The notes below the pieces were generated by a model. The model was not told where the DNA came from and ran no database searches. It was given only the letters and a program-made list of their open reading frames with translations. 24,850 nucleotides of DNA, taken from the IMG/VR virus record IMGVR_UViG_2565956726_000010; one strand, written 5' to 3'. Position numbers and translations under genes: made by a program. This document shows positions 1 to 24,850 of the stretch, piece after piece; within the stretch, counting starts at the first letter, position 1, and every line of letters starts with the position of its first letter. This stretch comes from a virus (lineage: Duplodnaviria; Heunggongvirae; Uroviricota; Caudoviricetes).

Positions 1-288
1 TTAACGGATCAACATCCAGATCAGCAGACACGCCACCACCGGCACAGCAAAATCCATCAGGCTTGCCACATCCCACACGCGCGGATCAAAACCGCCCCAC
101 CACGGCATGTTAATCCTCTTGCCATGCCCAAACATTTCAATCCAGCGATATTCTGCCTGGGTGTGTTCACGCGCAATGAAGAACGTACAACCGGCTATCG
201 CACCGTAAGCCCAGTTTCCGGTAAAAAGACCAGCCAGTACCTGCACCGCTACGGCACAAAGCGCATGAAGTATCGACGTGATATCCAT
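1..288 (-). CDS. small integral membrane protein, function unknown (95 aa)
   Basis: ATG at 288..286 preceded by AAGGA Shine-Dalgarno about 6 nt upstream; stop TAA at 3..1, exactly at the window edge; two to three hydrophobic segments (ILHALCAVAVQVLAGLFTG, MDFAVPVVACLLIWMLI); starts 9 nt after the stop of the 298..576 gene, same strand. Confidence 0.45.
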   Translation of the reverse strand: MDITSILHALCAVAVQVLAGLFTGNWAYGAIAGCTFFIAREHTQAEYRWIEMFGHGKRINMPWWGGFDPRVWDVASLMDFAVPVVACLLIWMLIR

Positions 289-297
289 CTGCTATCC

Positions 298-576
298 TTA
301 AAACCACTCCCTGAGCGGGCGCTCTGGTGTAACCACCCACTCACGGAACACGGAATCATCAAATCCATCGTCAAGAAGACGGATATTAACAAAGTACCCT
401 TCGTTTCGCGTGTATTCTGGTTCTCCGTCATCAGAAACATCTGTCTCCCTGAACGTAAAACCAATCTCATCAACCAGAACGGCATTCTGCAGCTCTTCGT
501 CCTCTTCCCAGTTAAGTTTCCTGAGAAATGCCCTGAAATCTGCTTTATCACTGAAACGCAACGTGAAATCTCTCAC
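298..576 (-). CDS. small highly acidic protein, function unknown (92 aa, GTG start)
   Basis: GTG at 576..574 overlaps the stf stop codon (GTGA) and has a strong GGGGAGG Shine-Dalgarno 7 nt upstream; no internal Met; Asp/Glu-rich with few basic residues; occupies the position where lambda carries tfa but has a different size and composition. Confidence 0.45.
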   Translation of the reverse strand: MRDFTLRFSDKADFRAFLRKLNWEEDEELQNAVLVDEIGFTFRETDVSDDGEPEYTRNEGYFVNIRLLDDGFDDSVFREWVVTPERPLREWF

Positions 577-2636
577 TCCACAACCTCCCCAAGCTGCGCA
601 TCTGTTAGCTCTTTATGCCAGAGACGAAAATTCCTCACATGCCCAAATAAATGGCGTAATCCTGCTGTAGTTTGTCCACCAATGCGAATGGTTGCTGTAC
701 TCCGGATATATTCCCATTTGGTTTTAGTTTCGCTGCTTAACTTACCGTTACTGACTACACATGTGGACCGTTCGGACTTTACCCGCATACCAATAAGCAT
801 TTTTTCCAGCCCGGCATTTTCATTTATTCGTCGGTCTGAACCACCTATATCGCAATACGGAAAACCGTCGTACCCACCTGATGAACCAAACCCCATTACG
901 ATCCCCGCATCTGCCTGATGCCGGTATGTGTCAAAAACACGCGGTGCTGCATTTGGCGTTTTATACCAGTTCTTATGTACCTCACAAAGAACCGTAAAAG
1001 GAAGATTATAAAGATTATTCTTAATCGGAACTGTAACCATATCGCTTGCCCGCGTTACCGGTGCCGTCCCCGTAACAATAAAAGATGATGCGCCTGTACC
1101 AGCCTCAATCTGTGGAGTGGTTACATCGAGATAATCCCCTGATGCAACCATCTGCCCTGTATCCGGAGAATACTGGACAAAACCACCAACCGTATTTTCT
1201 GTTGTATCTGCTTTTAATGTAGCCTCAAAAAATATCCAGCCAGTTGCATCATCCTTAACAGACCTTGCTGTAACACGGCTTGTCTGACCTGTCTTGCTAA
1301 TTATGCGGGTGGTAAGGTTCAGGTTTGCTGCTCCTATTGATGTCCTTACCTCCCCATCATAATGTTCAAATAAAATACGAACGGCGATATTATCAACTTC
1401 ACTTTTTACCCGACAGGATATAGTTACATGCTTTTCGTCCCCTGAAGTATCAACCCCTCCGGTACTCGAATACAGTCCGATAATGGTATGCGCTTTACTT
1501 GTACCAACAATCGAATCCTGTACGACAAACCGGCCATAATTAAACCCGAAACTATCTGTGCCTGTTTCTGTAACGTCCAGTGAAGTTGACTTATTCCACT
1601 TCGAAGGGTCTGTACTGTTCTGGAAGAAGTTCGTTCTTTGTCCCTCAATAAGCAGGCCATCACACTCAAATCGTGGCTCATTAATTTCCGCCGTTTTCAG
1701 TTCGCCAGATTTGTTGATATATGTTGCCGTTGATGCGCGACTGAAATTAATCTGTTTATCACTGGCAACCTGAACCACATTATCGCCAATCTTCACTTTT
1801 TTATAACCCGGAGAATAGCCCGTAATCATATCCAGCGAATCATTAAAGGGTATCCACACATCCGGCAGCGGCTGTAAAACATATCTGTACGGCTCTGCTG
1901 TCTGGTTTGCGTATTCTCTGGCAGCATCTTCACTTGCTTTTGCTGCCGTCTGGCTTGCTGCCGATGCTTTCGCCGAGTTCGCCGCCGCTGTTTCGCTCAC
2001 CTTTGCGTTGGCTTCACTGTCTTTGGCATTCGTCTCACTGGTTTTCGCTGCCGTCTGGCTGGATTTTGCGTTTTTTTCGCTGGCCTTTGTGGCTGTCTCG
2101 CTATTTTTCGCGTTGGTTTCTGATTTTTTGGCTGCTGTCGCGGAGTTTGCCGATGCAGTCTGCGAGGCCGCTGCCGCCTGTGCGCTGTTAGCTGCATTCG
2201 TTTCTGAGGTTTTCGCCGCATTCTTCGATGAGGCTGCTGCCGTTTCGGATTTCTTTGCCGCCGCTGCACTCTGTGATGACGCTCCGGCATGACGTGCCAC
2301 TTCATTCACCATCAGCTCAAAACGGCGCAGTGCCTCCGGACGAACATCATCCTCCGTCATGGCGCCGAGAAAATCATTCAGCGTACCTGGTCTGGAACCT
2401 TCATAGACGGTAATGGTCCCGGCATGTGAAGGTGGAAAACCTTCAACCAGCAGGGTGACGCTGTACTGGCCATACTCAACATCCATGCTGTAACGCCCGG
2501 CTTCATCCGGATTTTCAGAGGCCACCGTGTTCACCACCACCGTGCTGCTGGTCCGTCTGGCCTTCAGCACAATGGTGCAGTTCTGTACTGGTTTTCCTGT
2601 GCCATCTTTAAGCACGCCAGAAATTTTTACTGTCAT
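573..2636 (-). CDS. stf: side tail fiber protein (lambda Stf-like N-terminus, Ala/Ser/Thr-rich repeat shaft, non-lambda C-terminal domain)
   Basis: N-terminus MTVKISGVLKDGTGKPVQNCTIVLKA... is near-identical to my recollection of lambda Stf; ATG at 2636..2634; C-terminal ~450 aa unlike lambda and ending in a motif (VRNFRLWHKELTDAQL) resembling the C-terminal signature of LamG/concanavalin-like jellyroll domains. Confidence 0.9.
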   Translation of the reverse strand: MTVKISGVLKDGTGKPVQNCTIVLKARRTSSTVVVNTVASENPDEAGRYSMDVEYGQYSVTLLVEGFPPSHAGTITVYEGSRPGTLNDFLGAMTEDDVRPEALRRFELMVNEVARHAGASSQSAAAAKKSETAAASSKNAAKTSETNAANSAQAAAASQTASANSATAAKKSETNAKNSETATKASEKNAKSSQTAAKTSETNAKDSEANAKVSETAAANSAKASAASQTAAKASEDAAREYANQTAEPYRYVLQPLPDVWIPFNDSLDMITGYSPGYKKVKIGDNVVQVASDKQINFSRASTATYINKSGELKTAEINEPRFECDGLLIEGQRTNFFQNSTDPSKWNKSTSLDVTETGTDSFGFNYGRFVVQDSIVGTSKAHTIIGLYSSTGGVDTSGDEKHVTISCRVKSEVDNIAVRILFEHYDGEVRTSIGAANLNLTTRIISKTGQTSRVTARSVKDDATGWIFFEATLKADTTENTVGGFVQYSPDTGQMVASGDYLDVTTPQIEAGTGASSFIVTGTAPVTRASDMVTVPIKNNLYNLPFTVLCEVHKNWYKTPNAAPRVFDTYRHQADAGIVMGFGSSGGYDGFPYCDIGGSDRRINENAGLEKMLIGMRVKSERSTCVVSNGKLSSETKTKWEYIRSTATIRIGGQTTAGLRHLFGHVRNFRLWHKELTDAQLGEVVE
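1919..2285 (-). repeat. in-frame tandem short repeats encoding an Ala/Ser/Thr/Lys-rich low-complexity shaft inside stf
   Basis: Protein residues ~118-240 are iterations of units like AAKTSETNA / AKKSETNAKNSE; the DNA shows repeated gcttctgaaac / gccgctgc-type units; spurious ORFs appear in several frames on both strands here. Confidence 0.6.
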
Positions 2637-3454: not shown

Positions 3455-6400
3455 TCAGCTAATCGTGATGCCTGCAGTGGCTTTCTTCATCACAACAACC
3501 AGCAAATCGCTGATACTTGCTGTGGGATACCAGCCATTTACCCACCATGCTGATACAGAAAACTCCAGCGTCATGTCGCCGCGACCAGCAGGCATATCAA
3601 TAACACCACTGTAAACCAGCGTATTATCCATCGCGGTACGGTTATAAATTTCAGCACCGTTTTTCTTCACTATCAGGCGGCATGACGAATAAGTATCGCT
3701 GTTCTCCCGCTCATGTCTGGCACCGCTGAAAGCCACCGCCGGAATAACAATCTGCCGGTTAAACGGCTGATCGTCATAAACCCTGACGGTAATGGTTCCT
3801 GATGGCCAACGCTTCGGTGCACGGGAGTCACGAGGGAAAGCCTTACCCACTGTTTTAACGAGATCGCCTTCAATCTGGTTTGCAGACAGTTTCCCTCTGA
3901 TGACACAGTTCTCGTTAATGGTGACATTATTGAGCGTGCCGGTATTCGCCGTGATGGCTCCACTGATATCCGCATTGCGGGCTGTCAGCCTGCCATCCGG
4001 CGTCAGGGAAAACGTCGGAGGATTGCCGGATGACGTGATGCTCACCGCAAACAGTCGCTTCAGGAACACGTCGTTCATGAACAGCTGATTCCCCTGCGCC
4101 ACAAACAGCGGCGTGGTGTTGCCGTTCTCCGGGGTAATCATCGCAATGCGATCGGCCTGCAGCAGAATGTTACTCAGGGTCTGACCATCAACATCCTCAA
4201 TCCCCGCACCAATCCCGGCCACATAGGGAATACCGTTTTTTGTTTTCTGCACCTTCAGCATATACATGGCATTCAGCTCATTGCGCGTGTCTGACTGAAC
4301 CCGCTGGATTTGCTGTATGGTCACGGCCTGGTCACCCAGCTTTTTATCCGTGGTCGAGGTAATTTCACTCCCTTTTTTATCCACGTACTGGCGGACCTGT
4401 GCTATCTGTCGGGCGTTTTCTGACTGCCCCTGGCTGACAGTCTGTGAGATTTCACTGCTCACCCGGTCCACTTTCTGGCTCACCTGCGCGATGGCCAGTG
4501 TCTGATCCTCATTCTTTTTCGCAACCAGCTGCGTGAGGCTGTTTTCCGCCTTCCCGATTTTCCGGGTCACTTCTGCGATATCCGTGTCCATCCGCTGACG
4601 GATATCTTCTTCCAGTTGCGTGACCTCCGTACGCAGCGCTGAAGCATCAATGCGCTCTTTCAGTGCCTGACCCAGAAGCGTCTCATCTATCAGCCCCCGG
4701 AAAATTTCCAGATACCCTTCACCATCATTGCTGGGCTGCCCGCTGGCTTCCACAAAAGCAGATTTTCCCACCAGGTTGACGCTTCGCACGTAAAACCAGA
4801 AATCCGTCCCCGGCTTAATCCGGCTCCCCTGGACAGTCCACTGACTGCCGGTCCCCAGATAACGGGCAGATTTTTCCACCTGTGCTGTGTTCGTGATGCG
4901 TTTTTCTGAGAACCAGAATTCAAACTGTACCGTCGGGTCATACACCGCAAGACGCGGGACCGCCGTTATCTGAAAATACCCCGGCGTCAGCTCAATGGTG
5001 GCGGGTTTTGCAGGTGCGTTAATCCGGAACGATACCGACGCCGGATCGCCCTGCTGTCCCCGGGCATTTACCGCCCGGACCGTCAGCGTGTAACGCCCCA
5101 GCGCCAGCTGCCTGAAGCGGTAAGTGGTTTCCGCCGTCCGGGCCGTGCTGACCAGCCGCTCACTGCCGTCATCCGCTGTTACGGTCAGACGGAGCAGGAA
5201 GCTCACGCCCTTCACCACCTTCGGCGTGTCCCAGCGCGCCAGCACCTGATATTCCCCGCTGTCTGCGGTGACTTCGGCGGTCAGGTGCTGCACCGCTGGC
5301 GGCGTGACACCATTCACCGTGCCGCTCTGGTCGCCGTCAAAGTGCGCTCCGTTATCCACGATGGCCTCTTTTTCCGGTACATGCTGCACGGCGGTGATGG
5401 CATACGCACCGTCATCGTTCTCCCGGATACTCACACAGCGGAACAGGCGCTGGCGCAGCGTCGGCAGCTTCAGCCCCCACACGCTGTATTCGGCAACGCC
5501 GTCAGGAATACGGCTCACTTTCACCTTCACGCCGTCGGTGACGGACTGGACCTCCACGCTGACCGGATTCCCACTTCCGTCAACCAGGCTTATCAGCGTG
5601 GTGCCGGAGGATGACAGCATGATTTCACGGTCGAGCGTCAGCGTCCGGGTCTGGCTGTTCACCGCCAGCACGCGCCCGCCGGTGCTGATACCGGCATAGT
5701 CATCATCACAGATTTCAATGACATCGCCCGGAACATGGCGAAGCCCTTCTGCGCCGACGCTGAAGTCCACGGTCTGCGTTTCCAGCAGTTCTGTTTTAAT
5801 CAGCCACAGCCCGGCGCGGTGTGCCTGCCCCCGGCTGGTACAGCCAAAGGCATCCATCTTCGTGACGTTACGACCGTAACGGGCAATGGCCTGCGTGTCC
5901 TCCACAAGCTCTGTTGCCGTCTCCCAGCCGTTATCCGGGTCAATCCAGTTCACCTCAACGGCATTATGGCGGTCCTTCAGGGCGCTGAAGCTGTAGCGGA
6001 ACGGCGCGCCATCATCCGGCATCACCACATTACTGCGGTTATAGGTCCACACCTTATCCGACGGTCGGTCCTGCACGAACGTCAGCGTCTGCCCGTTCCA
6101 TACCGGCATACAGCGCATCGCCGAGCAAAAATCACTGAGCACATCCCACGCCTTGCGCTGTGTGGTCAGGTACGCATTACAGGTGATGCGCGGCTCCGTG
6201 CCGCCAAAGCCGTCCGGCACTGACTGGTCGCAGTACTGGCCGATGACATACAGCGCCCATTTATCCACATCCGCTGCACCAAGACGTTTCCCCATGCCGT
6301 AGCGCGGATGGGTCAGCATATCCCACAGACACCAGGCCATGTTGTTGCTGTATGCCGGTTTAAACGTTCCGTCCCAGATACCGCTGTATTGCCGCGTCTG

Positions 6401-7153
6401 CGGGTTATAATTCGACGGCACCTGCAGAATACGCCCGCGCAGATGATAATTACGGCTCACCTGCTGGCTGCCGAACTGTTCCGAGTCCACCTGTACGCCG
6501 ACCAGTGCCGTGTTCGGGTAGCACTGTTTCACATCGATGATTTCGGTGTATGACGACCAGAGCGTTTTGTTCTGCAGCTGGTCTGTGGTGCTGTCCGGCG
6601 TCATCCTGCGCATCCGGATATTGAACGGGCGCGGCGGCAGGTTATCCACCACCACCGAGGCCAGATACTGCGAGGTGGTTTTGCCTTTAATGGTGATGTC
6701 TTTTTCCGTCACCCAGCCACCATTACGCTGTATCTGAACCAGCAGGCGGACTTCCGACGGATTCCGGTCACCCTTTGAGGTGGTTTCCACCAGTGCCTGC
6801 ACACCGAAGGTAAAGCGCAGACGGTCGATGTTTGCCGACGTGATGGTGCGGGTGATCGGCGTGTCATATTTCACTTCTGTACCGAGCACCGTCTCGGAGC
6901 CGGAGGATTCAAAACCTTCCGGCGGTGTCTGCTCCTGCTCACCTGCCCGGAACACCACCGTGACGCCGGAGATGTTGGTATTCCCCTCACTGTCCAGCAC
7001 CGGCGTACTGTTCAGCAGCACGCTTTTTAATCCATCCACCGGACCTTCAATCGGCCCTTCGCTGATGGCATCAATCACACTCAGCAGTTGCGTGGACTTC
7101 AGGTTGTCCTTCGCTTCGCGCGGGGTATGCCCCTTACTGCTTCCTTTGCCCAT
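3455..7153 (-). CDS. J: tail tip / host specificity protein J (central fiber)
   Basis: 1232 aa; N-terminus [54 protein letters not shown] matches lambda J as I recall it; about 100 aa longer than lambda J (1132 aa) with an extra coiled-coil-like segment and a divergent C-terminal ~150 aa. Confidence 0.95.
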
Positions 7154-9205: not shown

Positions 9206-9546
9206 CAGTGAGTGACCTCTTCAAAGGTACAGTTAAAATCGGTATACATGGCATTATCCGAAATGCTCCACTCCCTGCAGACAACCCGGACAGTCCTGTT
9301 GTGTTTTGGCGGACGCCACAAAAAAGCACGAACCCCGGCATGACGGGATAAAAAACTGTCCAGCGCGGCACGGGAATATTCATCCGTGACACGAAATACC
9401 GGTTTAAACGTTTTCAGATCTGCATTCAGACCACCAGCCCGTCGCTGTTCATATCCGTCACCGAACTTTACCGTAATAACAGATGGCTTTCGTGTCGTCT
9501 CCATCCCCTCGCGGGGGATCCAGTTAAAAACTTCAGACTCAGGCAC
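9205..9546 (-). CDS. M: tail tip protein M (GTG start overlapping the tape measure stop)
   Basis: Aligns to lambda M (FRWKVKPGMD vs FNWIPREGME; VRKVRFGDGY vs ITVKFGDGY); the alignment places the start at GTG 9546..9544, which overlaps the H stop at 9541..9539; an in-frame ATG at 9504 is an alternative. Confidence 0.75.
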   Translation of the reverse strand: MPESEVFNWIPREGMETTRKPSVITVKFGDGYEQRRAGGLNADLKTFKPVFRVTDEYSRAALDSFLSRHAGVRAFLWRPPKHNRTVRVVCREWSISDNAMYTDFNCTFEEVTH

Positions 9547-12500
9547 TGCATAATCCTCCGTCCCGACGTGATGACTGCATAATTGACACAACCCTGCTGT
9601 CGATCAGATCCACCAGTCCCCTGGCTGAGCGCGCATCTATCTCGCCATTGCTCCCTTGATTCTGAATGCTGATGTGATACACGGGAGAATAAACAAATCC
9701 ACCGCCACCATTCACATTTCCAATGGCCCTGACCCCAAGAGAGCCGTCCGCTGCCCGTGTCAGTGGCATGATTGCTTCAGGCCCGGCCTCGCCCATCAGC
9801 CCGGCACCTTTCGCAAAAGCAAAATACGTCGGGGTATCCACAATGGTGTTACTGTAAGCACTCAGATTTGCCGATGTATAAACACCACCTTTTGCGTTTG
9901 CCACTGCACCGGAAAGCCAGTCGCCGACTGTACCAAGCCATCCTCCGGCACCGGACATGCTTTTGGAAAGTGACTTCAGCCCGTTAACGATGGCAGCGTT
10001 CATCAGAATTTTTGAAACTTCCTGGAGAATTGAACTCCCCCAGTTTCTCCAGTCCACAACATTTCCGGCCAGTGCATCGGAAATATTTGATACCAGCCCG
10101 TCCATAGTGGAAACGACAGCATCTGCCGCCTGCGAAGCATAATCGGTGGCACTGTCTGCCCAGTTCGTCAGTCCCTCCTGGAGTCCGGCATTCCAGTTAC
10201 TGCGTAAAGCATCAGCCTTTGCATAATAATCCTGCTGATCGCTGAGACGCTCTTCCAGATATTTTTCATTCAGAGATTTTTCCTGTTTCCACAGGGCTTC
10301 TTCAATTTCTCCGGCCTGATACTGTCTCAGTAGCTCGTTATTTTTCTGCTCAAACTCCTGCCGGATGCTCCACATTTCCTGAAGTCGTTCACGCATCCGT
10401 GAGCCTTCACCATATCCCAGTAACTGAGCCTCATTTGATGCTCTGACACTGGCATTACTGTCCGCCAGACTGCTCTCATACGCAGCAAGCTGCTCACGAA
10501 TCTTTTTCTGGTCGATGAGTGCTGCATTCTGCAAAAGCGTTTTTTTCTGCGCTTCTGACAGGGTTGATAATTCGCCCTGGCTGACCTGATATTTCATCTT
10601 AGCCAGTTCAGTATTCTGCCCTGCCAGTGCTATTTGCTCTTTTTGCTGTTTAATCAGTTGCTTATAAGTATCTTCTATTTTTTCCGCTTCGGTCTTTTTA
10701 TGCGCTTTGGGTTTATTTGCCTGGTTATTTCGCCATGCATCCAGTGAGTTATTTATATAATTCAGTCTTGCTGTCTGATACGCCTCTCCCACAAAGCCGA
10801 GATCATCCGCAGCATAACCCAGGCGGGCACGCTCACGAGCTTCCCCCTTCAGGCGGGACAGAGCCAGTTCGCGCTCGCTGTTATTCAGTGCGGTCTGCTG
10901 TTTATCATCCAGGGTTGCCTGTGGTAGCCGTAACGGTACATTCACCAGCCCCTGTCGCTGCTGAAGTAATTCATTACCGAGCCCGAGAAGGCGATTAAAC
11001 TCGGTATGCTGCCCATTCATGATCAACAGGGACTGATACGCTTTGTTTTGTTCCGCTGCCTGTTGACGGATCAACGCCATCCGTCGCTCCTCCAGCCCGG
11101 CAAGCACATCCTGAATGGATTGCGCTTTGCCCTGCATTTGAGTGAGGCGAGACTGTTCAACTGCCAGTTGATTTGTTGCTTCTGCAAGCCCTTCTGTGAC
11201 AGTTTTTACCGACGTCATGTGGTTAATCATAAAACCGTTATCGGTTGTCCAGCCCGGGTTTGCCAGCACATACTGATAGCCAGCAATTTTTTCCTGTAAG
11301 GATTTAATCTTACTTTTCTGCTCGTCAATTAACCTGTTTTGCTCCTTCAGTGCCTGTCGCGTCTTTTCCTCATTATCTGACGCTTCAGGAAGCGACATTG
11401 CCGACGTTTTCTGGCGAATTTCGTCGATTGTTGCGGCATACTGTCGTGCAGATTCTCTGGCCTGCTCCTGATTCTGATACATCGTGTACCAGGCCGCAGC
11501 CCCCAGCATGACGAGTCCCGGCACACCACCAACCAGCCCCAGCGCGCCACTTAATAAACGACTCCCCACTGACGTAACATTATTCAGCGTTGTCTGTGCC
11601 GCTGTTCTGGCCGCAATATTACGGGTAAGTGACACCTGGGCAGCTGTCAGCTTCGCTTCTGCTGCGGCCTGCCTTTCGGTACCGCGAGCAGCAACAACCG
11701 CCTGTTGCGCACGATAAACCGCCGCACGCGCCCTGGCGGTTGCTATCTGTGTCCCCCGAAGTTGCACTTCAGCAAGAGCCACTTCGTTTCTGGCTGCAGT
11801 AATTAATCCGGCAGTTGCAGATCCAGCAGACGACGCCATATTGCCAAAATATCGGGCTACCCCGACGGCAACCAGAGCACCAGCAGCGGTTGCCACGGTG
11901 TCAATATTGCCTGCAATACCATTCAGCACACCGGAGAGCGTCTTCGTCACTCCGCTTGCCTCGTTCGCACCACCAACCCAGGCCATAAAGGCGTTTTCAA
12001 CTTTGGTTGCAGAGGATGAAACCGTATCAGGCATTGCTGCATATTCATCACGCAACGCCCCAAGCTGACTAATCAGTGCAGGAACAACCTTATCGGCGGT
12101 CAGTTTTCCGTTATCCGCCATGGCCTTCAGATCCTTACGGGCAACCCCCATTCCCGCAGCCAGCGCACGAATAACACGATCGCCGTTCTCATTCACCGAG
12201 TTAAACTCTTCACCGCGCAGCACTCCCTGCGCCAGTGCCTGACTGAACTGCGTGATCACCGAACTGGCTTCTGCTGTACTGGCACCGGATAATTTCAGGC
12301 CCGTGGAGATCGCCTCGGTGACTTTCAGTACCTCCTCAGAACTGTAACCATACTCCCGCATGGAAGCTGCAGAACGGGCAAAAAGGCTGGCGTTATCAGA
12401 AAACGCCGTCCCCGTTCTCTGGCTGATCGCCATTAATTCACGCTGTGATGACTGAAAATCATCACTGGACTGTGAGGCCTGCTTCAGACGGGCATTTACT

Positions 12501-12784
12501 GAATTCCACTCATCGGCGAGAGAAATAAGATGACCGGTAGCAAAAGCCCCGGCAAATGCCCCCGCCATGTTCAGTGCCGAAGATTTAGCTGTATTTATCT
12601 GATCCGTCACTTCTGCCAGTGCACGCCGCATTTCACGGGATGCAGCAGCGGACTGTCGGCCTCCGTTCTGCATGGTACGGTAGTAATCCTGCCCCATACG
12701 CGAAGCCCGGGAGATCTCTGACTGGAATGACCGGGAATTTGCCGAGATTTTAATAATCAGTTCACGTAATGTCGCCACACTCAT
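9539..12784 (-). CDS. tail tape measure protein (not lambda H-like in sequence)
   Basis: 1081 aa, Ala/Gln-rich with long coiled-coil stretches and hydrophobic Gly-rich segments; sits between the GT chaperone and M as in all siphoviruses; ATG 12784..12782. Confidence 0.9.
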   Translation of the reverse strand: MSVATLRELIIKISANSRSFQSEISRASRMGQDYYRTMQNGGRQSAAASREMRRALAEVTDQINTAKSSALNMAGAFAGAFATGHLISLADEWNSVNARLKQASQSSDDFQSSQRELMAISQRTGTAFSDNASLFARSAASMREYGYSSEEVLKVTEAISTGLKLSGASTAEASSVITQFSQALAQGVLRGEEFNSVNENGDRVIRALAAGMGVARKDLKAMADNGKLTADKVVPALISQLGALRDEYAAMPDTVSSSATKVENAFMAWVGGANEASGVTKTLSGVLNGIAGNIDTVATAAGALVAVGVARYFGNMASSAGSATAGLITAARNEVALAEVQLRGTQIATARARAAVYRAQQAVVAARGTERQAAAEAKLTAAQVSLTRNIAARTAAQTTLNNVTSVGSRLLSGALGLVGGVPGLVMLGAAAWYTMYQNQEQARESARQYAATIDEIRQKTSAMSLPEASDNEEKTRQALKEQNRLIDEQKSKIKSLQEKIAGYQYVLANPGWTTDNGFMINHMTSVKTVTEGLAEATNQLAVEQSRLTQMQGKAQSIQDVLAGLEERRMALIRQQAAEQNKAYQSLLIMNGQHTEFNRLLGLGNELLQQRQGLVNVPLRLPQATLDDKQQTALNNSERELALSRLKGEARERARLGYAADDLGFVGEAYQTARLNYINNSLDAWRNNQANKPKAHKKTEAEKIEDTYKQLIKQQKEQIALAGQNTELAKMKYQVSQGELSTLSEAQKKTLLQNAALIDQKKIREQLAAYESSLADSNASVRASNEAQLLGYGEGSRMRERLQEMWSIRQEFEQKNNELLRQYQAGEIEEALWKQEKSLNEKYLEERLSDQQDYYAKADALRSNWNAGLQEGLTNWADSATDYASQAADAVVSTMDGLVSNISDALAGNVVDWRNWGSSILQEVSKILMNAAIVNGLKSLSKSMSGAGGWLGTVGDWLSGAVANAKGGVYTSANLSAYSNTIVDTPTYFAFAKGAGLMGEAGPEAIMPLTRAADGSLGVRAIGNVNGGGGFVYSPVYHISIQNQGSNGEIDARSARGLVDLIDSRVVSIMQSSRRDGGLCSA

Positions 12785-15804: not shown

Positions 15805-17022
15805 TTATTTGCCAGTGAGCGCCTTGATGGCTGCCACATCTTCCAGCACACAGTCAAAACGATGGAAAGCCAGAAATGCCACCTGATCAAACTCAGCATA
15901 ACGCTCAACCAGACGTTTCAGTTCCATATAAGTAACGCGGCGAATGATAAAGCGGTTGAAATCCCCCAGGAAAATGAATTTTTTTCCGGTACCAATCCCG
16001 TCAATAGCCTGATCAATAACATAAGGGATCCCCAGCACAGTAGCCGGCGTACCGCCTGCAATATCCGGCAGCCATAACGGGCGTTTCTGCCCATCCTCCA
16101 TCTCTTCAATAGTCTGCAATGTGGCATCATTGAATGCCCAGCGGTATTTCGGCCCACCACGATATGCCGGATCAATGGCATGTTTCAGGGCATTCATTTC
16201 TTTCCAGGTGAAAGCGGCAGAGGCTGCAGTCTGGATGGTTCCCGTCACCGACGCTGCCAGCCCTTTTGGCTGTAACGGTGATCCCGTTCCGGTCCCCTGA
16301 ACCAGATATTTTGCCTCTCCACGACCAATACGCTGGGCAATACGGTTTGCCAGATAAGATTCAATATCCACCCCACTGTCCTGGAGCAGCTCATTGGACA
16401 CACGAATTATTTTTGATGACAGCTTTTTAGCCCCCAGAATAGCGGTCCCGAACGTCACATCCTGTTCCGTTGCGGCTGTATTTTCCGCCAGCAGTTCGCC
16501 CTCTTCAGTCGTGCCATCAGACGTTGACCAGGTGATATCCTGCCCGGTTGATGTGGTCAGAAGTTGCGCCACACTGGCAATCCCGCCATAAGCCTTCATG
16601 GTGTCAATGATTTTGTTACGCATCTGCGTGGGCACCGTATATCCGCCCTGAGAATCCGTTGTTACACTCTGAGCCCGCAGTTCACGCATCAGATTACGCT
16701 CTTCAGCATTCAGTTCTGCAAATCCGGCACGCAGAAAACGGTTAAATGCCGCAGCGCGCTTCTCTTCCACCGCCTTTTTCCCGTTCTCCGCCTCATTATT
16801 CTGGCGCTCTTCCGGCCCGGACTCATCCACATATGCCTGATCCTGACGGCGCAACTCTTCTTCACGGGCGATTTGCTCATCCAGCGCATCCAGCTCAGCT
16901 TTCGCCCTGTTCCACTCTGCCCGTTGCTCATCAGTCCATGCGTTATCACCAATTTTTTCATGCAGTGCACGCATATCCTTTGCAATGGTGTTTCGTTTTT
17001 GCTTCATCTCATGAAGTTTCAT
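15805..17022 (-). CDS. major capsid protein, HK97 family (with N-terminal delta/scaffold domain)
   Basis: 405 aa; N-terminal ~100 aa is a charged coiled-coil (delta domain) followed by an HK97-fold capsid body; follows the prohead protease as in HK97. Confidence 0.9.
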   Translation of the reverse strand: MKLHEMKQKRNTIAKDMRALHEKIGDNAWTDEQRAEWNRAKAELDALDEQIAREEELRRQDQAYVDESGPEERQNNEAENGKKAVEEKRAAAFNRFLRAGFAELNAEERNLMRELRAQSVTTDSQGGYTVPTQMRNKIIDTMKAYGGIASVAQLLTTSTGQDITWSTSDGTTEEGELLAENTAATEQDVTFGTAILGAKKLSSKIIRVSNELLQDSGVDIESYLANRIAQRIGRGEAKYLVQGTGTGSPLQPKGLAASVTGTIQTAASAAFTWKEMNALKHAIDPAYRGGPKYRWAFNDATLQTIEEMEDGQKRPLWLPDIAGGTPATVLGIPYVIDQAIDGIGTGKKFIFLGDFNRFIIRRVTYMELKRLVERYAEFDQVAFLAFHRFDCVLEDVAAIKALTGK

Positions 17023-17036
17023 CGTCAGTAGTATCC

Positions 17037-17636
17037 TTATGCATTAAGAAGGGTCAAAAGACGCTCACGCGCCATTCGTTCGTTAACAGCTTTCTTCAGC
17101 GCACCACTCGCCCGCGCTTCCTGCCAGGCTTTCATTGAGCGGACACCAGAGTCTGCGTCCTGATAGGCCGGATATGTCACCGGGCTGACGTCATACAGAC
17201 GAGAAATGCGCGTGATTTCCCGGATAACAATCCCCTCGTCGTCTTCATACCAGCTCTCTCCGTCACGGGCGACACGAAACGCGAACGAGGACTGATTAAT
17301 GTCACCACGCAACATTGGAGACAGCACCAGGTCACAAATAGTCGGAGTATCCGGTGCAACAATGTCATAACGTAAACCGCGTTCATCCACCGACAATGAC
17401 AACGTGCCGGCAAAACTTCGTCCGAGAATGAAATTAGGATCATGATTAAACAAGCCACGTACATCATCATTCAGTACATCATCAAAAGCCCCCGGCTTGA
17501 TGATTTCACGAAATCCCCACAGAGGTTCTGAACGACTGTTAAATACCGAGCCATACCCCAGAATGTGGGTCGGGGCATTATCATATTGTTCCGCCCGCAC
17601 CTCCCCGCTGTAACAGCGCGTTTCACGGTCATTCAT
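17037..17636 (-). CDS. prohead maturation protease (HK97 family, S78)
   Basis: 199 aa between portal and major capsid genes; overlaps the portal stop by 8 nt; size and position characteristic. Confidence 0.85.
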   Translation of the reverse strand: MNDRETRCYSGEVRAEQYDNAPTHILGYGSVFNSRSEPLWGFREIIKPGAFDDVLNDDVRGLFNHDPNFILGRSFAGTLSLSVDERGLRYDIVAPDTPTICDLVLSPMLRGDINQSSFAFRVARDGESWYEDDEGIVIREITRISRLYDVSPVTYPAYQDADSGVRSMKAWQEARASGALKKAVNERMARERLLTLLNA

Positions 17637-18855
17637 CGTTCTTTTCCTCTTTGCCTTTCGTATCTTTAAAGTTATTCAACGGATTTGCTGCATTTACGCT
17701 GACCAGCATTTCATCCAGACCGTCAACCGGGTTCATATCCTCAAATGCCCTGGCTTCATTCCGACTCATCCAGCCATCTGTAATGGCAAAGTGATAGAAC
17801 TGCGCACGCTCCTGTGGGGTCCCACGGAGCAACCCCGTGAGGTTGAAACGAACGTAATACCCGGCAGCCCGTTCTGTACGGGTAAACAGGCGACGGTTAA
17901 GCTCCTGCTCCCAGTTCGCAACCCAGGGCATCATCGTGTAGCGAACAAACTGAATCGCCTGCTGCGTAATATTCGAAAATGTGGCTTTTTCCAGGTCATT
18001 AATCATGTGCGCCGGGACATTAAAAATCCCGGCAATCATCGACCGGTTCAGCTTGGTCATATCAATGATCTGAGCATCCACCGGAGAAACTGTCAGAGCG
18101 CGGTAATCCAGTTGCGCAGGCAGCAACATGGTTTTATTTTCCTGGCTGCGAAGCGCTGTCACCGCCCGCTGCCACATATTTTTAAGCCTGCCCCAGCTTT
18201 GTTCGTTCAGTTCATTTTTCACAGAAATAATACCGGCAGGACGGGCATTACCGTTAAAAAAGGCGCTGGTATACTGCTGGCCACTCATTCCCATACCAAT
18301 GGTTTCAGCATGCTGCATGATCGGGCTCAGTCCCATTTTCTGATTGTTTCCCAGCGCCCTGATATGGATCATGTCGTCCGGACTTACCGCAAATGCACCC
18401 TCTTCGTTATACACCCCGTAAGTATGACGCCCACCGGTGTTAAGTAACGTGGTTTCCCATGGCATACAGCATTCAAGGCTGGTAACCTCTCCACGACGAT
18501 TACGTTTTACCCACGTATAACCATTGCCCCACCCCAGCACATGACGCTGCTTCAGTTCCCGCCACTTATAGCTGGTCTGCCAGGCATTAGGTTCATCATG
18601 AACGAGCCAGAACAACGGATGATCGCGTGCCGGCTGAACATGCTCATTCGTTTTTCGCATCACATGCAGGGGCATCTGAGCCACACTGGATGAAATAACA
18701 TAAATACAGGCATAGACAGCAGCCAGCTTCATGGATGTTTCCGGACTGACATACACATCCCGGGCAAAAATATTATCCGTCTCAGCGGCCTCTCCGGTTA
18801 CCGGAACCGAGGGATTTTCCAGAGGCTCACTGCGAAACAGAGCATCAAGAAGCAT
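17629..18855 (-). CDS. portal protein (HK97 family)
   Basis: 408 aa downstream of large terminase; strong GAGGAG Shine-Dalgarno 5 nt before ATG 18855..18853. Confidence 0.9.
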   Translation of the reverse strand: MLLDALFRSEPLENPSVPVTGEAAETDNIFARDVYVSPETSMKLAAVYACIYVISSSVAQMPLHVMRKTNEHVQPARDHPLFWLVHDEPNAWQTSYKWRELKQRHVLGWGNGYTWVKRNRRGEVTSLECCMPWETTLLNTGGRHTYGVYNEEGAFAVSPDDMIHIRALGNNQKMGLSPIMQHAETIGMGMSGQQYTSAFFNGNARPAGIISVKNELNEQSWGRLKNMWQRAVTALRSQENKTMLLPAQLDYRALTVSPVDAQIIDMTKLNRSMIAGIFNVPAHMINDLEKATFSNITQQAIQFVRYTMMPWVANWEQELNRRLFTRTERAAGYYVRFNLTGLLRGTPQERAQFYHFAITDGWMSRNEARAFEDMNPVDGLDEMLVSVNAANPLNNFKDTKGKEEKNDE

Positions 18856-18985
18856 GTTTTCTCCTCATGGACACCACCAGTGCATAAAGCAGCAACAAAC
18901 AGCCCGACAGCATCAGAGACGCTGGCAGACCTGCATACAGATAAACGCCAGCAGTGAGCAAACCGAAACCGATCAGCCCGGTCAT
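18845..18985 (-). CDS. possible small hydrophobic protein (46 aa) between terminase and portal
   Basis: ATG 18985..18983 to TGA 18847..18845; translation MTGLIGFGLLTAGVYLYAGLPASLMLSGCLLLLYALVVSMRRKHAS is one or two TM helices; not in the ORF track (below size cutoff); no convincing Shine-Dalgarno. Confidence 0.3.
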   Translation of the reverse strand: MTGLIGFGLLTAGVYLYAGLPASLMLSGCLLLLYALVVSMRRKHAS

Positions 18986-19002
18986 ATCAGTAATAAGCTG
19001 TT

Positions 19003-20760
19003 TCACAGAATTAACAGGTCCTCATCAGGATCAAGCGTGGACAGAAAGTCATTCACGCCCCCTCCATTTACCAGAAAGCGGCTCATGGCTGTAAAAAGCG
19101 CAACAGGGCCGTCGATTTTGGCTTCCGGCGTGGATTTATTCGGGAAGATGTTGTCGTTTTTGTCCGGTTTTACAGTAACGTTAGACATCATCCAGTTCAT
19201 GACCGGATGATTGCTGTGATGGAAACGCCCGGCATAAACCAGTGATTCCGTTTCCTTCATGGCCTCTGACAGATTGCGGACCGTCTGCGGAACCTCCACC
19301 AGCGGTATCCCTTCTTCAGCCAGTGCCAGGCTGAACTGCATTGCGCTCCACGGGTCAAATCCCAGTTCCCTGAGGTTTTCACCGCCAATCCATTCCAGTA
19401 AGTCACTTTTTATCTGAGCATGATCGATAACATCACCATCCGTCAGGATGAGCTTATCCATCTCCGCCCACTTCCGGTAAAGTTCTGCCTGCTGCCGCGA
19501 GCATCGTTCCAGCCGTCCTTCCGGAAGCCAGAATTTAAAATCAGCATGAACATGTCCGTTATCGGTTCGCCAGAGTTTTGCCGCCGCACAGATATCAATC
19601 TTATGAGCAAGGTCGACGCCGACCCACATGGGATATGTTTTCAGCTCATGTTGTGGAGCAATGTATTCGCACTTCTCCCACTTAATCATATCCATCCAGG
19701 CAGATTCGGCAGTGACCCACACATTCATGTGTTTGGTAAAAAAATTCACCCGCGCAGAGACCTGCTCCTTCGCTTTTTTCGCCAGACGACGCAGATCATC
19801 CCAGCGTTTACAGATGCCCAGGCCAGGATTCGCTTTCTGCCAGACCGTTTCATCAAACGGATCATCTCCCTCATCAAGCGTGTAAATGATCGCAAAGTAA
19901 GAGTCGTCTTTTACAGCGCCCTCCACGTCGCTGTTATAGCCTCGCAATACCTTGATGGCGTAATCACGCTGCTCGTAACAAATCCCTTCCTTGTTAAAGC
20001 CAGCCGTGGTGATACCAAATAACAGGGACTGCAGACGGGCACCGGTTGCCGTTTCCAGAACGTCCCACACGTCGCGGGTTTTATGTGCATGCAGCTCATC
20101 AATAATGGCGCAGTGGATGTTCAGACCGTCCAGGTTGTTTGCATCCGAGGAAAGCGGTTCAAATTTTGATGCGCTCTGCTCCTGGTAAATCGCCAGCTTG
20201 TTGAAATCAAACAACCGCCCGAGTGTCGACCGGGCTTTTCTGACCATATTTTTGGCGTCTTCAAACACGATTCTGGCCTGGTCACGCGTGGTTGCGGCTG
20301 AATACACCTCAGCTCCGCCTTCACTATCTGCCCCCGTCATATACAGGCCGATACCCGATGACAGTGTTGATTTTGCGTTTTTACGGGCGACTTCGTTGTA
20401 CGCCGTCCGGAACCGGCGCACCATCACCGGACGTCCGCTGCCATCGCTGCGCATGACAACTTCCCCGGTTTCTTCATTGACCAGCGGAATGACAAAACCA
20501 AAAATATTAATGAGGATAAATACATGCCAGTCCATCAACTCAATGGGCTGGCCTGCCAGTGCCCCTTTTACATGAGGCACAAATTTGTAGAAATTCAGGA
20601 TGTGCTGCGCACGGGGTTCACTGAAATAAATCCCCCGCTTTTCGCCGTACTTCAGATCATCAAGAAAACGCTGGCAGGCCAGGCGGACAAATTCGCCAGC
20701 AACAATTTCTCCTGCAACAACACGTTCGGCGTAGCGGATCCCGTCAGCCACTTTTGCCAT
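19003..20760 (-). CDS. terminase large subunit
   Basis: 585 aa; Walker A-like region near the N-terminus and acidic nuclease-type motifs; ATG 20760..20758 overlaps the small terminase stop (TGATG). Confidence 0.9.
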   Translation of the reverse strand: MAKVADGIRYAERVVAGEIVAGEFVRLACQRFLDDLKYGEKRGIYFSEPRAQHILNFYKFVPHVKGALAGQPIELMDWHVFILINIFGFVIPLVNEETGEVVMRSDGSGRPVMVRRFRTAYNEVARKNAKSTLSSGIGLYMTGADSEGGAEVYSAATTRDQARIVFEDAKNMVRKARSTLGRLFDFNKLAIYQEQSASKFEPLSSDANNLDGLNIHCAIIDELHAHKTRDVWDVLETATGARLQSLLFGITTAGFNKEGICYEQRDYAIKVLRGYNSDVEGAVKDDSYFAIIYTLDEGDDPFDETVWQKANPGLGICKRWDDLRRLAKKAKEQVSARVNFFTKHMNVWVTAESAWMDMIKWEKCEYIAPQHELKTYPMWVGVDLAHKIDICAAAKLWRTDNGHVHADFKFWLPEGRLERCSRQQAELYRKWAEMDKLILTDGDVIDHAQIKSDLLEWIGGENLRELGFDPWSAMQFSLALAEEGIPLVEVPQTVRNLSEAMKETESLVYAGRFHHSNHPVMNWMMSNVTVKPDKNDNIFPNKSTPEAKIDGPVALFTAMSRFLVNGGGVNDFLSTLDPDEDLLIL

Positions 20761-21242
20761 CAGTCTCTCGCTTTTAAAAGCTCTGCCAGCGGATCAACAT
20801 TATCCGGTCCGGCGGTATTTACTTTTGCCCGGCTTGCCGGTGACATACCAAATTCTGCAAGCATCGCCCGGATCCGCTTCCAGGCATCCGCTTTCATCGC
20901 AGCAGCCGGGTGTGCCTTAATCAGCACATCACCGTTCTGCGTTTCCGAGCGGTAGGTGTACCCCTCAACATCGAGTGTTTCGCAGTGATGCCGGTATTCG
21001 GTATAGGCTTCCACCAGTAGCTCAAGCGCACGCGCATCAAGCTGAGAAATGATCCCTTCCGCATTCAGCTCTTCCGCCATTCGCCTGAACCAGTACTTCC
21101 CCTGCGCCCCTAAATGTTGCGGAATTTTAGGGAGACCTTTTTCATCCTTTTTAGCGGTTTTTTTGAGGTCTTTAACTGGCCGCTTTGAGGGGTTGCCTCG
21201 TATCAAATGCAGGCGTGGCGGGATTTTCGGGGGTCCAGACAT
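20760..21242 (-). CDS. terminase small subunit (P27-like family)
   Basis: 160 aa basic N-terminus (PKIPPRLHLIRGNPSKRPVKDLKK) directly upstream of and coupled to the large terminase gene. Confidence 0.8.
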   Translation of the reverse strand: MSGPPKIPPRLHLIRGNPSKRPVKDLKKTAKKDEKGLPKIPQHLGAQGKYWFRRMAEELNAEGIISQLDARALELLVEAYTEYRHHCETLDVEGYTYRSETQNGDVLIKAHPAAAMKADAWKRIRAMLAEFGMSPASRAKVNTAGPDNVDPLAELLKARD

Positions 21243-21389
21243 AATCGGTTTTACCTATCAATCATTTAATCACATTCCAAAAAAAAGTTTTCGAACCTGC
21301 GGCGATGCGAGGAAAGGTCAGGCGGCGGTACTGAGCAGCCAGGGTTGCAGAGATTTGACCCGCCCCTCCCCTACAGATGGGAACTGTTA
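21243..21389 (-). other. presumed cos (cohesive end) region between HNH endonuclease and small terminase
   Basis: Synteny only: HK97-like phages place cos between the HNH gene and terS; the interval is non-coding and contains a GC-rich motif (aggtcaggcggcggtac) next to A/T tracts; the exact nick sites cannot be identified by eye. Confidence 0.3.
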
Positions 21390-21740
21390 TCAATTGATGC
21401 GTTCGCGCGCTGTTTTTGCTTTATGACAGGGCCAGCACAGACTCTGCAGGTTACTGTCTGCATCTGTGCCACCATGAGCTTTCGGAATGATGTGGTCCAC
21501 AGTTCTGGCTTCAACGGCTCTCCCATTGCGCAGGCAGTTCTGACACAGATGATTATCACGCTTCAGTATGCGCGCACGTATGGCATCCCATTTCGAGCCA
21601 TAGCCACGCTGGTGGCGGCTCAGTCCGCGTTGATGCTGTACCCATCCTTCGCCACGATGTTTATCGCAGTAACCAGAACTGTCTGTGGTTGTACCTGCAC
21701 ATCCACGCTTACGGCAGGCGCGTGGGATTAGTGCTGGCAT
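21390..21740 (-). CDS. HNH endonuclease (terminase-associated)
   Basis: 116 aa with Cys pairs and the HNH core (CQNCLRNGR...VDHIIPKAHGGTDADSNLQSLCWPCHKAK); positioned just upstream of cos/terS as in HK97 gp74. Confidence 0.85.
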   Translation of the reverse strand: MPALIPRACRKRGCAGTTTDSSGYCDKHRGEGWVQHQRGLSRHQRGYGSKWDAIRARILKRDNHLCQNCLRNGRAVEARTVDHIIPKAHGGTDADSNLQSLCWPCHKAKTARERIN

Positions 21741-21878: not shown

Positions 21879-22418
21879 ATGGATATTAAAGATAAAATCA
21901 ATACCATTTTGTTATGTGACATTGCCATCCACCTAGGTATCGAAACTGATATTGATCCACAGCTTGTTAAATATGCTGTGTCATCTGGTAATGATTGGGT
22001 TATCAAGGCCGAATATTCACATTTGGATGTTGACGAACCAAGTAAAGAAGATCGTGATTTTGTTACTGCTGTCTTGAATATGTATCGCGGACTTTCCAAT
22101 GCTTTCAGGAAACTTAGTGATGACGAGCAAAAAGAATTAGTCCGTGACCATCATCTAAAAATACATGATGGGGCAATTCAGCTCCCAGGTTTCGACGGTA
22201 ATAATGAATGCGATTACTTCAGTATCATTGAGGCATATCAGAAAATTGATCGCTTCCCCGAACAGAAACAGCCCATTGCCAATACTCATTCACGTACAGA
22301 ACATCTCTATAACGCAATGCTTGATGAGTTTAAGAAAATTGACGCTGTAAATCGAAGCTGGGATTTATCGAAGGAAGAACTGGCATCCATTCTTTCCACA
22401 GCTCCACGCAGTTTCTAA
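21879..22418 (+). CDS. YfbU-family (UPF0304)-like protein, 179 aa; moron on the opposite strand to the phage late operon
   Basis: ATG 21879 with AGAGG Shine-Dalgarno ~8 nt upstream; AT-rich coding sequence; by-eye alignment to my recollection of E. coli YfbU across four blocks ([24 protein letters not shown] ~ [34 protein letters not shown] ~ [29 protein letters not shown] ~ [29 protein letters not shown] ~ LSANEINQII); followed by a hairpin terminator. Confidence 0.6.
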   Translation: [179 protein letters not shown]

Positions 22419-24284: not shown

Positions 24285-24850
24285 TGGATTTGCCCCTATA
24301 TTTCCAGACACCTGTTATCACTTAACCCATTACTGGCTTGCTGCCGTAGATATTCCCGTGGCGAGCGATAACCCAGTGCACTATGCGGATGCCATTCGTT
24401 ATAATGCTCGAACGCCTCTGCAAGGTTCTTTGCTGCCGTTAACCCGTCTGGTTTGGGCATGACACTGATGTAGTCACGCTTTATCGTTTTCACGAAGCTC
24501 TCTGCTATGCCGTTACTCTCCGGACTCCGCACCGCCGTGCTCTTCGGTTCAAGCCCCAACATCCGGGCAAACTGCCGTGTTTCATTAGCCCGGTAGCATG
24601 AACCATTATCCGTCAGCCACTCTACTGGAGACGCCGGAAGCTCGTTGCCGAAGCGGCGTTCCACCGCTCCCAGCATGACGTCCTGTACTGTTTCACTGTT
24701 GAAGCCGCCCGTAGTGACCGCCCAGTGCAGTGCCTCACGGTCACAGCAGTCCAGCGCGAACGTGACTCGCAGTTTTTCTCCGTTATCACAGCGGAACTCG
24801 AACCCGTCAGAGCACCATCGCTGATTACTTTCTTTCACAGCCACTCTGCC
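24285..24850 (-). mobile_element. IS2 insertion sequence, right-end portion (element continues beyond the window)
   Basis: Terminal sequence tggatttgcccctatatttccagaca at 24285..24310 matches the IS2 right inverted repeat as I recall it; the adjacent ORF translates to the C-terminal part of IS2 transposase InsD. Confidence 0.9.
24296..24850 (-). CDS. insD: IS2 transposase InsD (orfB, DDE integrase core), 5'-truncated by the window edge
   Basis: Translation ...[66 protein letters not shown]...[36 protein letters not shown] is near-identical to my recollection of IS2 InsD; the first codon in the window is GTG (Val), not a true start. Confidence 0.9.

Follow-up and report, generated by a model that had tools for sequence, protein, structure and literature searches.

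Among tail proteins that sense a receptor, gpJ of phage lambda is the reference system for siphophage receptor sensing and tail opening, and it has been engineered for delivery through swaps of its receptor-binding domain (RBD). Cryo-electron microscopy resolved several of its parts, including the hub domains, an alpha-helical shaft (AHS) and the Ig-like RBD, and revealed the AHS as a three-helix bundle placed between the FNIII domains and the beta-prism, where it clamps FNIII-2, with residues 809–840 making up the upper helix and residues 841–861 the lower part (PMC11101478). Upon binding to LamB, the lambda shaft flips by ~180 degrees and folds back on the prism, with residues 841–861 becoming beta strands, loosening of the FNIII clamp and opening of the tip (PMC11101478). 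Two further J systems are relevant here. In the chimeras A8 and 1A2, lambda J is joined at its aa 964 to the C-terminus of a natural Escherichia coli J, and DNA delivery by either into cells deleted for lamB and ompC requires that a suitable ompC allele be provided (PMC11338833). In the F2 pyocin, three side-fibre trimers bind the glycine kink of an extended AHS (PMC13455828). We analyzed the J gene of a 24,850-nt stretch of tailed-phage DNA (Caudoviricetes; IMG/VR record IMGVR_UViG_2565956726_000010), hereafter the window, which encodes a J protein with an extra segment of about 100 residues. We propose, with a probability of about 0.65, that this protein is a natural mosaic in which a lambda hub is joined to the long-shaft distal part of another J lineage, ending in an OmpC-class RBD, and in which the shaft would serve as a trimeric coiled-coil spacer.

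The open reading frame (ORF) of J is intact over 1232 codons. All six gpJ Pfam families were recovered in it above their curated cut-offs (E = 3e-43 to 2e-24), in the order FNIII-A, Phage-tail_3 (hub), Ig_J, Ig_J_second, Phage_Tail_Tip and Ig_GpJ_C, and a phmmer search against the Protein Data Bank (PDB) matched J with lambda J at 2067 bits. J is a lambda-type tail tip/central fibre protein, and its 97% hub identity with lambda J suggests that it forms a trimer that seals the tail tube and opens upon receptor binding. Its parts are the following, in window coordinates.

3455..7153, minus strand: J gene (tail tip/central fibre protein), 1232 aa plus stop codon, from the ORF list and its translation
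4904..7153, minus strand: J aa 1–750, lambda-like part (hub domains, FNIII-1 and the start of FNIII-2), 727/750 aa identical to lambda
4730..4903, minus strand: J aa 751–808, distal FNIII-2 and start of the non-lambda allele, from the drop in DNA identity
4268..4729, minus strand: J aa 809–962, AHS of 154 aa, from the lambda domain limits (PMC11101478), an AlphaFold2 (AF2) model and periodicity
4334..4639, minus strand: J aa 839–940, segment of 101–102 aa without lambda counterpart, a single gap in three independent alignments
4292..4552, minus strand: J aa 868–954, three diverged 29-aa repeats, from self-comparison
3902..4267, minus strand: J aa 963–1084, beta-prism (central straight fibre), PF09327 Phage_Tail_Tip, E = 2e-24
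3458..3901, minus strand: J aa 1085–1232, RBD, with PF12421 Ig_GpJ_C over aa 1102–1232, E = 6.8e-38

A previous reading of this DNA made from its letters alone (the sequence-only reading) had given 1232 aa for this J against 1132 in lambda, and both the ORF translation and the lambda record (NC_001416) bear these lengths out. BLASTP, phmmer and MAFFT agreed in assigning the whole length difference to one contiguous gap of 101–102 aa at lambda residues 838/840, which falls exactly between the upper and lower parts of the lambda AHS and renders a shaft of ~154 aa (aa 809–962) versus 53 aa (809–861) in lambda. Amino acid identity to lambda is 96.9% (727/750) from the hub to early FNIII-2 (aa 1–750), 53% (47/88) over the distal FNIII-2 and upper shaft (aa 751–838), 23% in the lower shaft helix (aa 941–962), 66% in the beta-prism (aa 963–1084, MAFFT) and 42.6% (63/148) in the RBD (aa 1085–1232). 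At the DNA level, identity scored in 90-nt windows is ~96% up to aa ~750 and 50–70% from there to the stop codon (52–58% across the RBD), with a step from 88% in the 90-nt window that begins at aa 721 to 52% in the one at aa 751. The G+C content falls along the gene from ~0.60 to ~0.53. Since the drop in DNA identity after aa ~750 is both abrupt and lasting, J is a mosaic of a lambda-type hub and another lineage's distal third, with its junction near aa 750 (nt ~4903). The long segment is thus a trait of the distal J lineage, not an insertion into an otherwise lambda-like gene. These comparisons uphold the earlier description of one contiguous extra segment of ~100 aa and of a strongly diverged C-terminus of ~150 residues, as the alignments reveal neither distributed indels nor a lambda-like end. 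The near-identity once extended to the first ~840 residues applies to aa 1–750 and breaks down over aa 751–838, and the word "insertion" suits the extra contiguous segment but overlooks that the whole region after aa ~750 is a different allele. Likewise, the interval 4260–4700 assigned to the segment fits the entire shaft, the inserted part alone being shorter (4334..4639).

We looked at what kind of structure aa 839–940 would adopt within this distal lineage. The segment has zero proline and four glycines (aa 867, 909, 928 and 940), charged residues account for 32 of its 102 positions with a net charge of 0, and Q, S and T for 31. Its hydrophobic period is best at 3.65 residues, with a power (138) that 0 of 500 shuffles reached, and the whole shaft has the same 3.65 period, the observed power being reached by 1 of 500 shuffles. 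This spacing is of hendecad type (11/3 or 29/8) and not that of a classic heptad, and the segment is an amphipathic helix. Self-comparison scored 47 at an offset of 29 residues and 35 at an offset of 58; in shuffled sequences the 95th percentile was 33 and the maximum 48. Repeats 1 and 2 (aa 868–925) roughly correspond to a 58-aa block that maps to aa 872–929 when alleles are aligned with each other, and the third 29-aa unit overlaps the part that aligns with lambda's lower helix. A search for DNA repeats and tandem repeats in nt 4200–4760 returned only short chance matches, which indicates that the 29-aa units are old and do not stem from a recent duplication.

An AF2 monomer of aa 713–1232, used for secondary structure and the RBD alone, had a mean predicted local distance difference test score (pLDDT) of 53.8 and yielded one helix over aa 813–960 (one-residue break at 813; pLDDT 33–63) and a confident RBD (pLDDT 75–94). 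The coiled-coil-like character attributed to the segment in the sequence-only reading finds support in the 3.65 period, the lack of proline, the AF2 helix and the location within the lambda three-helix bundle region. Its label "heptad-like charged" is approximately right, with the charge as described (32/102, net 0) and the period 3.65, not 3.5. When the shaft alone was searched against PDB sequences, lambda and A8 J were retrieved through the flanks only, with no solved homologue of the insert, and the next matches were CFAP100 (E = 0.39) and the F2 pyocin (E = 1.1). The J-like chains of T1 and gp24 matched a 415-aa fragment and not the shaft-only query, so this likeness lies in the beta-prism. 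Foldseek against the PDB listed lambda and A8 J followed by generic jelly-roll/Ig-like domains and nothing new. By analogy with lambda's solved shaft, which flanks the segment, the shaft most likely consists of three parallel chains in one trimeric coiled coil.

A different arrangement of the same residues deserves mention at this point. The extra helix might fold back on itself or on the prism, as a helical hairpin or six-helix bundle with glycine hinges, and thereby stiffen the shaft or tune the trigger without adding reach. The glycines at aa 867, 909, 928 and 940 lie within the segment, the AF2 confidence of the shaft is low, and such a movement is physically plausible, given that the lambda AHS flips ~180 degrees onto the prism after receptor binding (PMC11101478). 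However, the AF2 helix is uninterrupted over aa 814–960, the 3.65 periodicity spans the entire segment, and alleles differ by whole 58-aa blocks (~16 helical turns), which better fits a linear rod of variable length. On balance, we regard the fold-back as improbable, and the extended three-chain coiled coil as the preferred arrangement.

The block-wise differences emerged from a comparison of J proteins and fragments collected by two word-index searches and one exhaustive HMMER search, in which shaft classes were measured as the distance between the conserved anchors EGYL and YVAGIG. Sequences from these comparisons are designated below by P and L numbers. Four classes were distinguished.

70 aa: lambda type
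98 aa: Stx-phage type
171 aa: window J allele
240 aa: P0149 and P0150

The Stx-type shaft equals the window J shaft minus 15 aa and minus exactly one 58-aa block, that is, two 29-aa units. The shaft of P0150 equals that of window J plus an 11-aa block and a second 58-aa block, which is identical to the neighbouring copy at 45 of 58 positions. Shaft length varies with how many copies of a 58-aa unit are present (0, 1 or 2), window J having one. Two partial J sequences, P0012 and P0193, were excluded from the length classes, as their exact internal duplications, partly located in the beta-prism, are probably assembly errors. More distant J-like proteins of 1100–1980 aa align through the entire long shaft at ~30% identity and bear still longer repetitive helical regions, which places lambda's shaft at the short end of the family rather than as its norm. 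Our literature search found no paper on J shaft-length variation.

Shafts and RBDs also occur in different combinations. P0138, P0142, P0152 and P0153 have the window J shaft (89–100% identity) with an RBD only 63–67% identical, and P0149 and P0150 combine their longer shaft, 67–69% identical, with an RBD that is 91–94% identical. The J of phage 2G7b (1131 aa; L003 246..3641) has a lambda-length shaft and an RBD 90.5% identical to that of the window, and the J of Stx2a_JNE110649 (L004 231..3641) has the 98-aa shaft and an RBD 88.5% identical. More generally, the window RBD is 88–92% identical to that of J from phage 2G7b, PPompW prophages and Stx2a phages. One RBD class is thus found on four shaft lengths, from which it follows that shaft and RBD assort independently.

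The long-shaft allele is by no means confined to the window. In a set of 5,426 complete E. coli genomes, 771 contain its 306-nt segment, with 1,185 occurrences in all, each in a gpJ-annotated gene. A conserved hub segment has 14,977 occurrences in 4,466 genomes, which puts the long shaft in roughly 8% of J copies. The insert matches (blastn and tblastn) just two of 50,697 phage records, PhiR49_2 and PhiR40_1. Over its full length, the DNA of window J is 99.3% identical to PhiR49_2 (PV340570) and 98.1% to PhiR40_1 (PV340560). The window in its entirety aligns with PhiR49_2 at 99% identity across 93% of its length. The GenBank host field of both phages reads E. coli ECOR13. The allele is presumably functional, because its ORF is intact, it occurs in deposited complete phage genomes with a named host, and it is present in 771 of the 5,426 genomes. 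These data also bear on the possibility that the extra segment is an artefact, either a duplication introduced during assembly or a sign of a decaying prophage gene. The exact internal duplications of the family fragments P0012 and P0193, which resemble assembly errors, are the one observation in its favour. The 1232-codon ORF, however, is intact, the segment is devoid of DNA repeats, and hundreds of complete genomes as well as two deposited phage genomes contain the same sequence at 98–100% identity, which leaves an artefactual origin with hardly any probability.

We further assessed the probable receptor by comparing the C-terminus with J proteins of known specificity. Its best PDB match is 9wca ("A8 gpJ 713"), with 369 bits versus 303 for lambda, and the related entry 9wcb contains the A8 gpJ fibre in complex with OmpC of E. 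coli EDL933. RBD identity is 63.2% to A8 and 40.6% to the J of h434 (tblastn). To 1A2 it is 83.6% over 152 comparable residues, a lower bound, as the 1A2 sequence was machine-read from a supplement. That DNA, with indels and ~70% DNA identity, was projected onto the J reading frame. Among database fragments, the nearest to the 1A2 RBD is P0194 (91%), which is a long-shaft allele too. As for the chimeras, 1A2 accepts OmpC of the EDL933 and TN03 types and K-12 OmpC poorly (PMC11338833). Identity to the LamB-contacting Ig domain of lambda is 42.6%, which sets the window RBD apart from the LamB-binding class. By sequence, the RBD groups in the clade of the experimentally OmpC-dependent RBDs A8 and 1A2. 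The prediction that the receptor is probably not LamB agrees with these figures, the closest characterized proteins being the OmpC users 1A2, at least 84% identical, and A8, at 63% and solved with OmpC in 9wcb. A receptor-prediction preprint that we considered covers Drexlerviridae GpJ and not lambdoid J.

OmpC is the best-supported receptor, and on these relationships we consider its use by window J rather likely. The competing proposal is that the receptor is still LamB or a third outer-membrane protein, as few loop residues decide specificity and a similarity of 63–84% may not fix it. In this regard, single substitutions in lambda J add the use of OmpF ("generalist" lambda, cited in PMC13190303), Gifsy-1 J binds OmpC, OmpX and BtuB (PMC12312913), and even A8 and 1A2 differ in the OmpC variants that they accept. 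Conversely, the RBD is only 43% identical to lambda's, its closest characterized relatives 1A2 and A8 work in lamB-deleted cells and need OmpC, and the A8-OmpC complex has been solved. A receptor other than OmpC therefore seems to us unlikely, although it is the alternative to which we concede most weight.

Putting these elements together, a mechanism can be envisaged for a protein whose first ~750 residues, the hub that plugs the tail tube, are those of lambda and whose distal remainder comes from another J lineage. By analogy with the lambda three-helix bundle, the shaft would be a trimeric coiled coil of ~3 times the lambda length, and with a rise of 0.15 nm per helical residue the 102 extra residues could place the RBD up to ~15 nm further from the tail tip. 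We infer a changed fibre geometry, in line with the sequence-only reading. The RBD would bind the OmpC porin, and this contact might twist the prism and unfold or flip the shaft, as in lambda, a rearrangement that would release the FNIII clamp and open the tip. The longer shaft could then act as a spacer or reach module and evolve separately from receptor specificity, for instance as a way through O-antigen or capsule. A spacer that lets a small RBD reach a porin beneath these layers is plausible, because O-antigen blocks the access of J to outer-membrane proteins in lambda and Gifsy-1 (PMC12312913). The more specific idea that reach is set by 0, 1 or 2 copies of a 58-residue hendecad-type block, tuned to the thickness of O-antigen or capsule, is put forward tentatively and as less likely than not. 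If true, the signal for tip opening must travel along ~23 nm of coiled coil, and the lambda model, with its refolding of a shaft of 53 residues on the prism, leaves signalling over ~23 nm unexplained.

Several observations weigh against the proposed long-shaft, OmpC-class mosaic. The AF2 model covers a single chain, and its confidence is low overall (mean pLDDT 53.8) and in the shaft (33–63). At two of the expected core positions, repeat units 1–3 have polar residues (K/G/K and Q/N/Q), and these, together with the four glycines, would be compatible with kinks or a fold-back. On the receptor side, the identity between the window RBD and 1A2 derives from an error-containing, machine-read supplement sequence, the OmpC variants accepted by A8 and 1A2 are not the same, and a literature search found no plating or adsorption data on ompC or lamB deletion strains for PhiR49_2 or PhiR40_1. 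The adaptive role in reach is purely conjectural.

One more function of a long shaft is suggested by the F2 pyocin, namely a docking platform for side fibres or another accessory protein. The extended AHS coiled coil of the F2-pyocin J homologue does anchor side fibres (PMC13455828), and in the window a side tail fibre gene, stf, lies two genes downstream of J (573..2636, minus strand) and encodes a 687-aa protein. This Stf, however, has the lambda-type N-terminal domain (PF08400), and in 2G7b and lambda this Stf N-terminus and this J hub are combined with short shafts; hence, attachment of Stf cannot depend on the long shaft. In addition, the window shaft has no significant similarity to the pyocin AHS (E = 1.1). 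A side-fibre anchoring role for the window J shaft is thus unlikely, and docking in general appears to us more doubtful than the fold-back. The coiled-coil spacer carrying an OmpC-class RBD remains our preferred reading.

J is flanked by the tail assembly gene I and by lom/stf. The neighbouring ORFs have Pfam matches to Phage_min_tail, Phage_tail_L, JAB+NlpC/P60 (K), Lambda_tail_I, Ail_Lom and phage_tail_N, and the order of the tail-tip cluster (M, L, K, I, J, lom, stf) agrees with the annotated PhiR49_2 genome. The distal part of stf has a G+C content of ~0.45, which suggests that the fibre tip was acquired separately, and a Pfam scan of the small ORFs downstream of stf (1..288 and 249..551) gave no match. 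The remaining features observed in the window are these.

9539..12784, minus strand: tape measure protein, 1081 aa versus 853 aa in lambda
15805..21740, minus strand: HK97-like head and packaging genes (Phage_capsid, Phage_portal, TerL, Terminase_4 and HNH endonuclease)
21879..22418, plus strand: 179-aa ORF on the opposite strand with a YfbU domain (PF03887, E = 6.5e-12)
24296..24844, minus strand: ORF at the window's right edge that encodes integrase-core (rve, rve_3) transposase domains and adjoins a DUF1327 gene

The tape measure protein is of HK97 type (PF06120, PF20155) with a lambda-type C-terminal motif (PF09718). Together with the HK97-like head genes and the lambda-type tip, this indicates a prophage whose head and tape measure are of HK97 type and whose tail tip is of lambda type. 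A close relative, PhiR40.1, belongs to the phages described as still modestly inhibited by SNIPE independently of ManYZ (PMC13190303). The YfbU ORF, flanked by the HNH/small-terminase genes on one side and the Rz/lysozyme genes on the other, lies in a patch of low G+C (0.44) and is moron-like in appearance. The rve/rve_3 ORF suggests that an insertion sequence element has inserted into the late region.

Window J is a common natural variant of a well-known protein and represents no new kind of system. Databases and two sequenced phages already contain the allele, with no remark on it. As modest additions, our analysis places the extra segment in the AHS, resolves it into 29/58-aa modules with an allele series of 0, 1 and 2 copies, shows shaft length to be decoupled from RBD type, and assigns the RBD to the OmpC-dependent 1A2/A8 clade. 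These points are relevant to the design of J chimeras and to host-range prediction for E. coli prophages, as natural shafts range from ~50 to >200 residues in discrete 58-aa steps independently of the RBD, and as the common long-shaft allele bears a 1A2-like RBD, so that OmpC is its likely receptor. They also pose the mechanistic question of how the trigger passes through a shaft three times the length of lambda's.

Compared with known systems, window J shares with lambda gpJ (P03749; PDB 8iyk, 8xck and 8xcj) the domain order (hub, FNIII-1, FNIII-2, shaft, beta-prism and Ig-like RBD), 97% identity over aa 1–750 and the gene neighbourhood K, I, J, lom and stf. It differs from lambda gpJ in the shaft (154 versus 53 aa), in its distal third (50–70% DNA identity), in the RBD (43%) and in the receptor, which is LamB for lambda and likely OmpC for window J. 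With the Eligo chimeras 1A2 and A8 (PMC11338833; A8 PDB 9wca and 9wcb) it shares the RBD clade, whereas these keep lambda's short shaft owing to the fusion at lambda aa 964 and that of window J is long. The J of PhiR49_2 and PhiR40_1 is essentially the same gene, annotated as "tail tip host specificity protein J" with the shaft unmentioned. The J proteins of Stx-converting and lambdoid prophages (the 1136–1159 aa class; P0196 and Stx2a_JNE110649) belong to the same family, and several of this Stx/lambdoid class, 2G7b included, have the same RBD class at 88–92% identity. In the Stx type, the last shaft unit and the prism are ~90% identical to window J, while between the same anchors the shaft measures 98 aa, against 70 aa in 2G7b (lambda-like) and 171 aa in window J. 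Finally, the F2-pyocin protein PyoF10 (PDB 25vf; PMC13455828), also a J homologue, has a three-stranded AHS coiled coil described as "exceptionally long". Its hub is conserved with that of window J (phmmer E = 9e-133 over aa 4–698), but no significant sequence similarity links the two shafts. That of the pyocin anchors side fibres and bears an insertion domain, and PyoF10 is devoid of a canonical RBD. This J homologue demonstrates that a very long AHS coiled coil is compatible with the J tail-tip design.

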